Shown piece after piece: positions 2,403 to 7,221 of a stretch of 11,686 bases of DNA. The translations under genes were made by a program, and so were the position numbers. The DNA lies in NCBI RefSeq assembly GCF_006345805.1, contig NW_021826923.1:1-11686 (forward strand), read 5' to 3'. Below the pieces are notes generated by a model. That model ran no database searches and was not told the origin of the DNA. It was given only the letters and a program-made list of their open reading frames with translations. Position 1 is the first letter of the stretch; the number at the start of each line of letters is the position of its first letter. This DNA is from Octopus sinensis. Lineage: Eukaryota.

Positions 2403-2923
2403 TTTAGGTAGGTTGGATAGAATCGCAGCCGTTTCATCTTGAAGCGCATTATTTACAATCCGGCGAATAGTTGTTGTTCTTGCTGTATTGATGTGAGGTG
2501 CTTATTAGAGTTGAAAATTCTGGAAACATTGTTTGCAGAATTATTATACAACAAAACAGGAATTTGGAAAAGTTTTGGGCACTATTTATTCACCATTACA
2601 CATGTTTCAATTACTAATAGGAATTACGTTGTTTTACATCCCTTACATGTCTATTTAACATGTAAAACACAATAATTCCTATTAGCAATTGAAACATGTG
2701 TAACGGTGAACAACACCCCAAAGTTTTCCAAATTTCTGTTCTGTTATAAGATCGAAAAAGGCAGGTACGGCTATGTAAGTGCTACCGCAGGACAGCTGTA
2801 AGGCTCCCGGTTCGATAATAGTATGAGTGAGGAGTCTAACACGGGTCGCGTGTGAGCGTGTATATGTTAAATAAAATGTGACAACAAAGCCAAGGCAGTG
2901 TGAAATTTCTAGGACATCTTATA

Positions 2924-3157
2924 TATTTCTTTATTGCCCACAAGGGGCTAAACATAGAGGGGACAAAGAAGGACAGACAAAAGGATTAAGTCGATTACAT
3001 CGACCCCAGTGCGTAACTGGTACTTTATTTATCGACCCCGAAAGGATGAAAGGCAAAGTCGACCTCGGCGGAATTTGAACTCAGAACGTAACGACAGACG
3101 AAATACCGCTACGCATTTCGCCCGGCGTGCTAACGTTTCTGCTAGCTCGCCGCCCTA
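2924..3157 (-). mobile_element. tRNA-derived SINE family B (MetaSINE/MESC-like central domain), full length with 17-bp TSD
   Basis: Minus strand: GGCGGCGAGCTAGCAGAAACGTTAG head, B box GAGTTCAAATTCC, body GACTTTGCCTTTCATCCTTTCGGGGTCGATAAA..GTACCAG. Perfect direct repeat TTCTAGGACATCTTATA at 2907-2923 and 3158-3174. Confidence 0.93.
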
Positions 3158-3186
3158 TTCTAGGACATCTTATAAAGAGAAAGGTA

Positions 3187-3233
3187 ATCTTACAGCTGTT
3201 TCAGAGACATAAAAATATTCCATCATCAGAGAC
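3187..3233 (-). ncRNA. Minimal type I hammerhead ribozyme motif (GUA cleavage triplet)
   Basis: Minus strand reads GTCT-CTGATGA-T-GGAATAT-TTTT-ATGTCTC-T-GAAAC-AGCT-GTA-AGAT: stem I GUCU/AGAU, CUGAUGA core, imperfect stem II, GAAA, palindromic CAGCUG stem III. Confidence 0.72.
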
Positions 3234-3426
3234 GATATGAGAGAGTTAGATCGAAGGAAATAGTAGAGTTCAGTACAAGATGTTATTTTGGGAAGGGAGA
3301 GATCTCCCCCAATCGTTTAGACCTATACCATTTTTCTTCCTCCTAACATACTTATCTATTCTATTCTCAAAATTTCATTTACACTACAAGGTTCTTTTGA
3401 ATGAATACCACATGAAATTAATACCT

Positions 3427-3648
3427 ATTTCTTTTTACTACCCACAAGGGGGCTAAACACAGAGAGGACAAACAAGGACAGACAAACGGATTAAGTCGAT
3501 TATATCGACCCCAGTGCGTAACTGGTACTTATTTAATCGACCCCGAAAGGATGAAAGGCGAAGTCGACCTCGGCGGATTTTGAACTCACAACGTAACGCA
3601 GACGAAATACCGCCAAGCATTTCGCCTGACGTGCTAACGTTTCCGCCA
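3427..3648 (-). mobile_element. SINE family B, slightly 5'-truncated, same tail as 2924-3157
   Basis: Colinear with 2924-3145 (cccacaagggg..ggacagacaaa..ggattaagtcgatta..cgaccccagtgcgtaactggtac..cgaccccgaaaggatgaaaggc..gtcgacctcggcgga). An 18-bp near-perfect direct repeat lies at 3409-3426 and 3710-3727. Confidence 0.92.
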
Positions 3649-3777
3649 CCTTTCTACCTTCCTTTTTTTCTTCTGTTGAAGAACAAACCATTTGTTGCTG
3701 CAATGTGTACACATGGAATTAATACCTGCTCACTATCCATTTGTAATAACAATATTGACTCCTACCAGAACTTACAT

Positions 3778-4161
3778 GGAAGGAAGCACTCCGTCGGTTA
3801 CGACGACGAGGGTTCCGGTTGATCCGATCAACGGAACAGCCTGCTCGTGAAATGAACGTGTAAGTGGCTGAGCACTCTACAGACACGTGTACCCTTAACG
3901 TAGTTCTCGGGGATATTCAGCGTGACACAGAGAGTGACAAGGCCGGCCCTTTGAAATACAGGTACAACAGAAACAGGAAGTAAGAGTGAGAGAAAGTTGT
4001 GGTGAAAGAGTACAGCAGGGATCACCACCATCCCTGCCGGAGCCTCGTGGAGCTTTAGGTGTTTTCGCTCAATAAACACTCACAACGCCCGGTCTGGGAA
4101 TCGAAACCGCGATCCTACGACCGCGAGTCCGCTGCCCTAACCACTGGGCCATTGCGCCTCC
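3778..4161 (-). mobile_element. tRNA-derived SINE family C, full length with 11-13-bp TSD
   Basis: Minus-strand head GGAGGCGCAATGGCCCAGTGGTTAGGGCAGCGGACTCGCGGTCGTAGGATCGCGGTTTCGATTCCCAG has A and B boxes. (CC)AGAACTTACAT is repeated at 3765-3777 and 4160-4172. Its 5' part is homologous to 10421-10582. Confidence 0.93.
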
Positions 4162-4295
4162 AGAACTTACATACCATGTACAAGAAGCCTTTTTACCCAT
4201 TCTACACAACACATTCCTTGAATAATGGAACAGCAAATTTAACATCCAACATATATGTATATATTTATTCTTACATTTCTCTTTATCCTTCCTAT

Positions 4296-4471
4296 ATCTC
4301 TCCCTTTCCAAAATAACTTCTATTGAATTCTACCATTTCCTTCTATTTAACTCTCTTATATCGTCTCTGATGATGGGATATCTGTTATATCCCCGAAACA
4401 GCTGTTAAGACTACTTCTCTCTAATGTCCCAGAAATTCCATACTATCTTGGCCTTGTTGACTCATTTTATT

Positions 4472-4476
<5 letters not shown>
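4296..4476 (+). repeat. Right arm of inverted repeat (pseudo-LTR copy)
   Basis: Reverse complement matches 2865-2918 plus 3175-3303; it ends in a (CA)n tract. Confidence 0.9.
4363..4411 (+). ncRNA. Minimal type I hammerhead ribozyme motif, with one extra base at the cleavage site
   Basis: GTCT(4363-66)-CTGATGA(4367-73)-T-GGGATAT(4375-81)-CTGTT-ATATCCC(4387-93)-C-GAAA(4395-98)-CAGCTG-TTA-AGAC(4408-11). Perfect 7-bp stem II and 4-bp stem I; GTTA instead of GTA. Confidence 0.72.

Positions 4477-4512
<36 letters not shown>
4474..4512. repeat. (CA)n microsatellite
   Basis: Pure AC run. Confidence 0.97.
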
Positions 4513-5660: not shown

Positions 5661-5823
5661 GGTGGCGAGCTGGCAGAATCGTTAACACACTAGGCGAAAT
5701 GCTTAGTATTTTGTCTGCCGTTACGTTCCGAGTTCAAATTCCGCCGAGGTCACTTTGCCTTTCATCCTTTCGGGGTCGATAAATTAAGTACCAGTTACGC
5801 ACTGGGGTCGATGTAATCGACTT
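5661..5823 (+). mobile_element. SINE family B, 3'-truncated (tail missing)
   Basis: GGTGGCGAGCTGGCAGAATCGTTA..GAGTTCAAATTCCGCCGAGGTC..CTTTGCCTTTCATCCTTTCGGGGTCGATAAATTAAGTACCAGTTACGCACTGGGGTCGATGTAATCGACTT; reverse complement of the 2924 and 3427 copies. Confidence 0.92.
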
Positions 5824-6890
5824 TTGCTTTGCATTTGTACAAGTTAACTCCAAGTCTTACCCAGAAACCTCAGGAGACAACAAGTTAGAAGTTTATGTTG
5901 GTCTTATGCCTATGGTGCCATATATTTGGTTTTGTACATAGTATTATTCTAGAGAATGTTTAAGAAAAATAAGATAATTATGAGTTGAGATTGCATAGTT
6001 AGTATTTTACGTAGGATATGGGCAGTTCCCATGAGCACTATCTTTTGAATTTCTGCCATTTTGGGGTTTCCTGGTATCTGAGCTAGGTAGCAATCAACCT
6101 CTTTTGTTATCATTCCATATTTTGCTAATTTCTTTATACTTGCTCAGTTTTTGGTAGGTCGTGACAGATACGTTTATATCGATTGGGACAGTCATGATTT
6201 TTGTCTGAAATCTTTCAATTTAATGTCTGGCCTATTTGCATCTGTCTTTCTGTCAGTTTGAACGGTGAAGTTCCATAGGAGTGAGATGTGATCATTTTCA
6301 AGCACTGGAAGTGGTTTGTGTTCCCACCAGTTTTTATCACGTGGCTGGTCCAGATTTTGTAAATTACTTAGTGAATATATTGTGCTGCTCTATCATGCCT
6401 ACTGAGATACTCTGTTGGCGGGAGGCTACCGTTCTTTAATATGTTGGCCTGGTAGTTTCTTGTAGGTAAGCATTGATCTTGTGCTGCTATGATAAACCCT
6501 TGTGTTTTTGATTTTAAGCCAGAAGCTTGATGGGTAAGAGCTTTATCAACATCGGCATTATCCGCTCTCTTTGTGTATTTGCCATTGTGAGGTTTTTCTT
6601 GTCATTTATCAGTAAGAATATCTAAGGCAGCAGTTTTAGCACGGATTTTCATACGCTTAGCTTTTTTGTGCTTGATTCTAGTACGTCTAATTCTGGAATT
6701 TGTTGTATTTGGAATTCACTTATATATTTCTTTGCCTGTTTTATTGCTGCGTATGATACTTTCTTGTTTTCATGTTTTGAGATAAGTTTTAACATCCAGT
6801 CCTCAGAGTTTTCCAGGTAGGTGTCTAGGCCAATTGTGGAAATCTTCATTGTTAATTCCAGTTGTAAAAGTCCACGGCCTCCCTCTTTAC
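5824..6890 (-). mobile_element. Decayed 3' fragment of an R4/Dong-like non-LTR retrotransposon (post-RT region, restriction-like endonuclease, 3' UTR), family 1
   Basis: Manual minus-strand translation across stops and frameshifts: KEGGRGLLQLELTMKISTIGL..; SGLKSKTQGFIIAAQDQCLPTRNYQANILKNG; PTEYLSRHDRAAQYIH; KNWWEHKPLPVLENDHISLLWNFTVQTDRKTDANRPDI; MTVPIDINVSV..QKLSKY; EIQKIVLMGTAHILRKIL. These are the RHD, PD and KxxKY motifs of RLE endonucleases. Confidence 0.85.
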
Positions 6891-7221
6891 TTTACCGCAC
6901 AACAGCCAGTGGACATATCTGGCCACATTGTCGTGTCTCCTTTTATATTCGCGTTGTGCGAGCTCACTGACAATATGGCTTATACTTTCTCCCTTTTCAG
7001 AGCCCATCCTACACTGTGGCGAGTCATTGCTTTTATTAATGTGATATTTGGGGTAGTTTGTACTGAGAGCTTGTTCTTAAGCGCTGCACACTAACGCCTC
7101 AGCGGGCCCTTTTAAGCCTCCTTTTTGCAGCCATTGCCAGGTCCTATTCCAATCAATCCCATCTTTGTTCTTCAAGAACTGATTGTGCATTTTCTAGCCC
7201 TGCCAGATTTTCTTCCTCTCC
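6891..7221 (-). mobile_element. Internal fragment of a second, divergent R4/Dong-like retrotransposon (zinc-knuckle/RHD region), family 2
   Basis: Minus strand: ERKKIWQG*KMHNQFLKNKDGIDWNRTWQWLQKGGLKG/AEALVCSA*EQALSTNYPKYHINKSNDSPQCRMGSEKGESISHIVSELAQREYKRRHDNVARYVHWLLCGK. Confidence 0.8.

Follow-up and report, generated by a model that had tools for sequence, protein, structure and literature searches.

A probable relic of a Penelope-like retroelement with minimal hammerhead motifs on both strands of an Octopus sinensis contig

The minimal hammerhead ribozymes described in Penelope-like elements (PLEs) share the consensus core CUGANGAH and are built from a helix II of 7-8 bp, a helix I of 4-5 bp, an unpaired base and a palindromic loop 3 (PMC4209133). 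They are found as opposite-strand pairs at distances of 100-700 bp, and in a truncated element a second, inverted motif has been reported at the 5′ end (PMC4209133). PLE copies are typically accompanied by inverted 5′-truncated ones and show a microsatellite bias; the hammerheads compiled in File S2 of the same work have U-stem II-Y-GAA cores and a stem III of ACAG/CUGU together with an A at the cut, and one of the elements listed there, Penelope-13_HM, bears a hammerhead on both strands (PMC8557442). Published minimal PLE hammerheads do not cleave as monomers and are slow as dimers or trimers (PMC4209133; PMC6765202), dimer cleavage having been reported by Lunse et al. 2017 (via the review PMC6765202). 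As for cephalopod genomes, PLEs are abundant in the group, with 31 recently active families in O. vulgaris (PMC13282606), and 235 Rfam Hammerhead_1 loci are given in the giant squid paper (context papers PMC8967140, PMC6962438 and PMC10886601), and ribozymes go unmentioned in the accessible portions of two genome annotation papers (PMC8967140, PMC13282606).

We analyzed a window of 11,686 nucleotides, the contig NW_021826923.1 of Octopus sinensis, in which a preliminary description based on the letters alone had placed two minimal hammerheads on opposite strands. The locus is probably what remains of a long-past insertion of a high-copy Penelope-like retroelement, in which two copies stand head to head and into which three SINEs were inserted later.

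The coordinates and letters of both motifs were confirmed. In the + copy (4363-4411), stem I (4363-4366) is followed by CUGAUGA (4367-4373), U 4374, the two strands of stem II (4375-4381 and 4387-4393), C 4394, GAAAC (4395-4399), AGCU (4400-4403), GUUA (4404-4407) and stem I′ (4408-4411), one U at 4405/4406 being extra. The - copy (3187-3233, read from 3233 to 3187) has a weakened stem II and a GUA site that ends at 3191, with the predicted cut between 3191 and 3190. Helix II consists of 7 pairs and helix I of 4 pairs, and a single unpaired base H, which separates A9 from stem II, is U in both copies (4374 in the + copy). The core CUGANGA...GAAA...UH is present in the - copy and in the majority of the family described below; in the + copy it is broken by the one extra U. 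The opposite-strand motifs are separated by 1129 bp, or by 433-508 bp once SINEs B and C are removed. The architecture matches the published consensus and supports the earlier assignment to the minimal type I hammerheads found in PLEs, in which stem III is palindromic.

The core CUGANGA joined to GAAACAGCUGU was matched twice in the window, against 0.00 matches expected (200 shuffles). A stricter structural descriptor, which requires a 4-bp stem II, the palindrome, U-H and a 3-bp stem I, retrieved one of the two copies, the - copy, and gave 0 matches in 300 shuffles of the non-microsatellite sequence; the + copy was left unmatched. The Rfam search recommended in the preliminary description gave no hammerhead match in 2900-4470 up to E=10, hammerhead models being absent from the 4 weak matches obtained; on the whole window, the 150 matches listed out of 222 were nearly all microsatellite-driven miRNA. 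In single-molecule folding, neither copy formed a hammerhead or performed better than shuffles (z -1.26, +0.70, -1.17 and +1.15). Since stem III is only 2 bp long, the lack of both an Rfam match and a monomer fold is expected. A third ACAGCUGU palindrome, followed by AAG and with no CUGANGA upstream, is located at window positions 2786-2803 (+) and is probably a coincidence in an unrelated repeat.

Stem II can be read in two registers. In the contiguous register, that of the first reading, stem II was said to have diverged with most of the changes rescued by G-U pairs; two G.U pairs are indeed present in the - copy, but one A.C mismatch remains. In an alternative register with one bulged C, all 7 positions pair in both copies (26 of 26 cells paired), 4374 is unpaired, G10.1 pairs with the base preceding GAAA, and the copies differ by one G-C to A-U double change. 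The pair G10.1-C11.1 next to GAAA, for which the bulged C is required, is then G-C in the + copy and G.U in the - copy and in the family majority. For the + copy, the contiguous register is predicted at -7.6 kcal/mol versus -3.0 kcal/mol for the bulged one; the base of the helix is then U.Y or A-U. There are precedents for the contiguous register in the U-stem II-Y cores of Hydra-clade PLEs (PMC8557442) and in the U.U at the helix II base of the axolotl hammerhead HHR_Amex2 (PMC7229834). The stem II of the - copy amounts to only -0.1 kcal/mol, against -7.6 kcal/mol in the + copy, and its stem I terminates in G.U; the earlier view of the - copy as the intact one was correct as to the retained GUA and overstated as to the rest. 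The comparison of the two stems contains one double change and three wobbles, a shuffle control on two rows being uninformative. That all 5 stem changes keep pairs has a P of about 0.025 under neutral decay in a register that was picked after seeing the data, while P is about 0.14 for finding all 14 core sites unchanged at the rate of the flanks, which is not significant for the two arms alone.

Both motifs are carried by the arms of one inverted repeat of ~190 bp, whose 3′ ends face outward into AC-rich sequence, an arrangement that the preliminary description had overlooked. Since the similarity of the arms spans ~190 bp, the motifs are copies of one repeat and the identity of the core, pointed out in the preliminary description, is not an independent recurrence. 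Segment 3158-3303 is 82% identical to 4434-4296 on the opposite strand (E 1e-32), and 2850-2917 is 82% identical to 4491-4424. Aligned across an intervening SINE (SINE A), the arms have 153 identical columns of 176 and 23 differences, of which 18 are transitions and 5 are transversions (K2P 0.147). Both finish in the same T-rich word, which is followed by AC-rich sequence.

On the left, this AC-rich sequence (2850-2867, -, TG-rich on the + strand, aligned to 4474-4491) lies directly outside the 3′ end of the arm. The arm itself consists of an outermost 3′ piece (2868-2906, -, identified by alignment to the + arm) and an inverted, 5′-truncated copy of the 3′ region of the element (3158-3303, -, matching 4434-4296). 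Inside it lies SINE A (2924-3157, -), which has a tRNA-like head, is flanked by a perfect 17-bp target duplication (2907-2923 / 3158-3174), is 90% identical to 3426-3646 and 5661-5823, and presumably belongs to the Octopus OK/OR type SINE family. The inversion junction at 3295-3310 is a near-palindrome (7 of 8 pairs), in which the arm similarity stops at 3303 and the GC skew changes from +0.44 to -0.64 at 3300. To the right of it, 3304-3426 is the probable 5′-most retained body of the + copy, its + strand taken from the skew only. There follow SINE B (3427-3651) with ~58 extra bases (together 3427-3709, -) between imperfect copies of an 18-bp duplication (3409-3426 / 3710-3727), the part of the element body that lies between SINEs B and C (3728-3777, +), and SINE C (3778-4159, -), also inside the body, whose tRNA-like head runs from 4159 to 4095, which is flanked by a 13-bp duplication (3765-3777 / 4160-4172) and is 91% identical to 10421-10590. 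ARAGORN detected no tRNA in the SINE heads. The 3′ region of the + copy (4173-4473, +) comprises the end of the body, a U-rich leader (4250-4362; T 55, C 28, A 28, G 2), the hammerhead and a tail of ~60 nt, with the motif 62 nt before the end of the arm, and is directly followed by an (AC)19.5 microsatellite (4474-4512, +). The + strand of the element is strongly pyrimidine-rich and has a GC content of 32-33%.

Because of the arms, the skew flip and the near-palindromic junction, we read the locus as a longer + copy that stands head to head with a short inverted copy. Assuming that the two arms were inserted as identical sequences, each would have drifted by about 0.07, or roughly 20 My, on the O. 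vulgaris scale, where a divergence of 0.065 corresponds to 18 My and 0.09 to 25 My (PMC13282606). No tandem pseudo-LTR was detected at this locus, the similarity of 3300-3425 to the 3′ region being no better than chance; since pseudo-LTRs are often absent from truncated copies, this does not exclude a PLE. For 3304-3425, descent from a tandem duplicate of the 3′ region, since decayed, was also considered and rejected, as 298 of 1000 shuffles score as well. The 58 bases between the SINE B head and the second copy of its duplication (3652-3709) were possibly carried from the source locus. A KNKP..HG-like frame at 3646-3777 was discarded as an endonuclease remnant: it begins in these 58 bases and has no Pfam match.

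Contigs from four runs, X1-X4, were placed on 4160-4485 at 80% likeness; X1, X3 and X4 come from one sample, possibly the source of the window, and X2 from an independent second organism. The numbers of contigs placed were 1322 (X1), 1013 (X2), 834 (X3) and 14 (X4), most of them 80-95% alike; the summed contig depth is not a copy number. The multi-copy family supposed earlier is borne out by the 1322 and 1013 contigs in the two organisms. Behind 4405, 79, 51 and 55 contigs diverge from the + copy and continue A-AGAC; it thus follows that the family site is GUA, that stem I is fully paired and that the extra U is private to the + copy, in line with the preliminary description, which had called GUA canonical and the additional base extra. 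Position 4374 is U or A (A makes up 44-45% of the depth in X1-X3), in agreement with the published consensus CUGANGAH, 4394 is U in 71-80%, and loop 2 (4383-4386) is variable. Among the 40 rows listed, the only change within 4367-4373 is 4370 A>G, at less than 1% of the depth (X1-X3). Of the 12 majority sites that were compared, for which 15 of the 24 listed arm rows were entered, the - copy has the family majority letter at 10. At 4357, roughly a hundred contigs in each large run have the majority letter.

In 18 contigs of X1 and 15 of X2, the loose ends that precede 4163 look by eye like 3738-3764, which indicates that the element continues across SINE C. Another opposite-strand joint (4240/4321) was seen in one contig each in X1 and X2. 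Contig depth peaks at the motif and in the last 30 bases and falls after 4478, positions 4479-4485 having 40-73% of the depth of 4468-4478 (X1-X3). The depth of 4446-4478 equals that at the ribozyme start, which suggests either numerous 3′ fragments of very small length or sister families that have this end in common. Run X4 is dominated by a single 220-nt contig (record 27, 4264-4475, depth 76.6) with A>G at the core positions 4370 and 4398. Editing was considered as the source of this A>G and set aside as less likely: there is one contig, the run was labelled DNA by guess, and A>G accounts for 4 of 49 places; a dead copy is the simpler explanation.

The identity of the element as a PLE and its arrival in a single insertion event are what we infer, the former from the RNA motif and the anatomy of the element. 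Several PLE hallmarks are observed, namely an inverted 5′-truncated copy adjoining the 5′ end, the second opposite-strand joint among the contigs, and a hammerhead in the 3′ repeat near the end, the sense strand being taken from the motif itself. The AC-rich sequence that follows both 3′ ends could be a microsatellite target or a tail. On the coding side, Pfam gave nothing below E 0.17 on 10 frames from the element, word-index protein searches of the element frames gave no match, phmmer gave 2 matches that are both tandem-repeat artefacts, atlas look-ups gave no usable match, and inspection by eye revealed no Hydra C-terminal CxxC/CxH motifs in any of the (decayed) frames.

The alternative that best withstands the evidence, though we regard it as unlikely, is a short, SINE-like non-autonomous element devoid of ORFs (a ‘mini-PLE’) with a borrowed PLE 3′ end and hammerhead, copied by PLE enzymes. 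The absence of coding similarity in the ~470 non-SINE bases upstream of the motif, the pyrimidine-rich + strand and the depth profile that is greatest at the motif and the last 30 bases all fit it. However, the frames searched were decayed and 21-60 residues long, so that blanks are weak, 5′ truncation also yields 3′-biased depth, and the family extends upstream across SINE C. In addition, 4167-4190 reads LHTMYKKP, loosely like the end of a Poseidon endonuclease, although this was seen by eye and is a lead only. A bolder version, to which we give somewhat less credence still, is an ORF-less hammerhead retroelement of octopods that reached hundreds of copies or more through PLE enzymes and whose ribozyme is switched off by editing of double-stranded RNA; if it were true, head-to-head insertions would give rise to long dsRNA in animals with very high A-to-I editing, here of core adenosines.

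It is improbable that the family and its ribozyme are as described and the two arms are separate insertions, or derive from separate RNA templates, that came to lie head to head by chance. The arms are 13% different, they differ at polymorphic site 4438, and different active variants as templates would more readily account for the double change from G-C to A-U in stem II. Against this, the arms abut at a palindromic junction with no recognizable host sequence between them, the arrangement is the published typical one (PMC8557442), and a second opposite-strand joint is found in both organisms.

A non-LTR retrozyme, i.e., tandem units of 150-450 bp with a hammerhead in each and circular RNA, was the other possibility raised in the preliminary description and is very improbable. 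The type I topology, the GC content and the invertebrate host agree with it, and mussel retrozymes exist (PMC7229834), yet there is no head-to-tail repeat of such units at the locus and no go-back joint among the 15 listed, the element exceeds 450 bp, and the stems (helix I of 4 bp and helix II of 7 bp, where the canonical type I motif has 6 and 4 bp and a loop 1-loop 2 contact) have the sizes of the minimal PLE form, with no Rfam hammerhead match. Even less credible is a MITE or another DNA transposon, whose long terminal inverted repeats would merely hold a hammerhead-like string: two inverted arms of ~190 bp do bound the unit, but contigs run continuously from arm to body (pieces 4161-4405, 4190-4400 and 4194-4405), no loose end at 4296, which a fixed second arm should produce, is shared among those listed (X1-X3), no duplication around the whole unit was seen by eye, and every sub-feature of the ribozyme consensus is present. 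The possibility that a repeat resembles a hammerhead by chance can practically be dismissed: the two copies count as one observation, Rfam and folding give no signal, and a looser pattern was matched at 10 unrelated loci when 241 million metagenome records were scanned, but the full descriptor finds nothing in 300 shuffles, the motif is in the correct place near the 3′ end, and family copies vary at the unpaired base and in loop 2 and have GUA and stem I restored. None of the 10 metagenome loci had element flanks (best E 0.10), and the pattern scan gave 0 matches in viral contigs and 0 in prokaryote genomes. In one metagenome contig, L005, positions 76-113 resemble a hammerhead core in which stem II is short and the AGCU loop recurs together with GUC; no pairable stem I was found there, and no PLE-like frame was seen by eye.

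Returning to the PLE relic, which we prefer, a 5′-truncated + copy (at least ~3730-4473) would have been joined at ~3300 to a shorter inverted 5′-truncated copy, and three SINEs would have inserted into this relic later. Each 3′ end would have borne the minimal type I hammerhead of the family ~60 nt before its terminus. In an active ancestor, by analogy with described PLEs, the motif most likely cut the element RNA after GUA as a step in retrotransposition. Because stem III is only 2 bp long, the monomer would not be cleaved; two same-sense copies may instead pair via the 8-nt palindrome ACAGCUGU, and a tandem or read-through transcript could be cut in this way to the unit-length RNA for target-primed reverse transcription. 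Lying on opposite strands, the two copies in the window cannot dimerize within one transcript; in a read-through RNA, their arms would instead anneal to a long hairpin with imperfect pairing. In self-cofolding, the palindrome pairs between two molecules over 8 bp (-) versus 10 bp (+), the 8-bp palindrome duplex amounting to -13.1 kcal/mol. In the + copy, the extra U is predicted to stretch the palindrome to 10 bp and to draw core A14 into the helix. Judging from these models, both copies look decayed and are probably inactive, the + copy because of the loss of A14 to the helix and the - copy because most of the stability of stem II is gone. The locus itself is probably a fossil that does nothing.

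Other old repeats are present in the window. Segment 2547-2748 is an imperfect palindrome of ~200 bp, 78% identical to its own reverse complement and MITE-like. Broken frames at 5830-7130 (-) resemble the 3′ half of a restriction-like-endonuclease LINE, which we take to be of Hero type, with no real Pfam match in 4 frames. Broken transposase-like frames at 8190-8580 and 8990-9410 (-), which we assume to be Chapaev3-like, are split by a SINE-like repeat at ~8580-8975 and likewise have no real Pfam match.

Opposite-strand pairs and an Octopus PLE hammerhead have already been published, and the novelty implied by the preliminary description was overstated; apparently, what we have is one more PLE-type hammerhead family, one not present in the papers searched, in an arrangement that is itself known. 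The family is undescribed in the literature searched, and Repbase, Dfam, subscription papers or the supplements of the O. vulgaris annotation may hold it. Two short family motifs gave 0 matches in the accessible supplement of Craig et al., where line-wrapped sequences could hide one. With hundreds of copies in two related organisms, the family would lend itself to asking which stem II base is selected (G.U with a bulge, or U.U / A-U), and the same copies would be useful for asking whether PLE hammerheads cleave in vivo.

Of the known systems, non-LTR retrozymes (Cervera & de la Pena 2020) share the type I hammerhead and low GC with our element and differ from it in having short tandem units, canonical motifs and circular RNAs, none of which was seen at the present locus (PMC7229834). 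The Octopus Naiads (Naiad_Obim, Naiad_Ovul and Naiad_Omin) share inverted structures, perhaps the microsatellite bias, and presumably the host; unlike the present family, which has a complete hammerhead, they are without a canonical one in the available material, with half a core only in Naiad_Ovul (PMC8557442). The Hydra-clade PLEs Hydra-1_Obim, Penelope-13_HM, Penelope-1_NV and Penelope-1_SK have an unpaired base on both sides of stem II (U...Y-GAA), as our motif does in the contiguous register, and, as here, Hydra-clade hammerheads have an ACAG/CUGU stem III and a GUA site and lie near the 3′ end (PMC8557442). The inverted 5′-truncated copy with a second hammerhead is also shared with this clade (PMC8557442, Craig et al. 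2021). In contrast to our family, the Hydra-clade stem III has a 1-3-nt loop and the targets are (TA)n, whereas the flanks here are AC-rich; the hammerhead of Hydra-1_Obim, from Octopus bimaculoides, is different in sequence throughout (PMC8557442). In the rows of Fig. S3 of Cervera & de la Pena 2014 that were available, there is no cephalopod, the molluscs being Lottia (twice) and Crassostrea, and the motif described here differs from theirs in that its G10.1-C11.1 forms only if a C is bulged and is mostly G.U across the copies, and in that no linked ORF was found (PMC4209133). In other respects the likeness to these PLE hammerheads is close: the core, helix sizes, stem III and U-rich leader are the same, they too occur as many dispersed single copies and opposite-strand pairs, and the row for D. 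willistoni agrees with the family reported here in the AGCU loop and in having A at the cut (PMC4209133).
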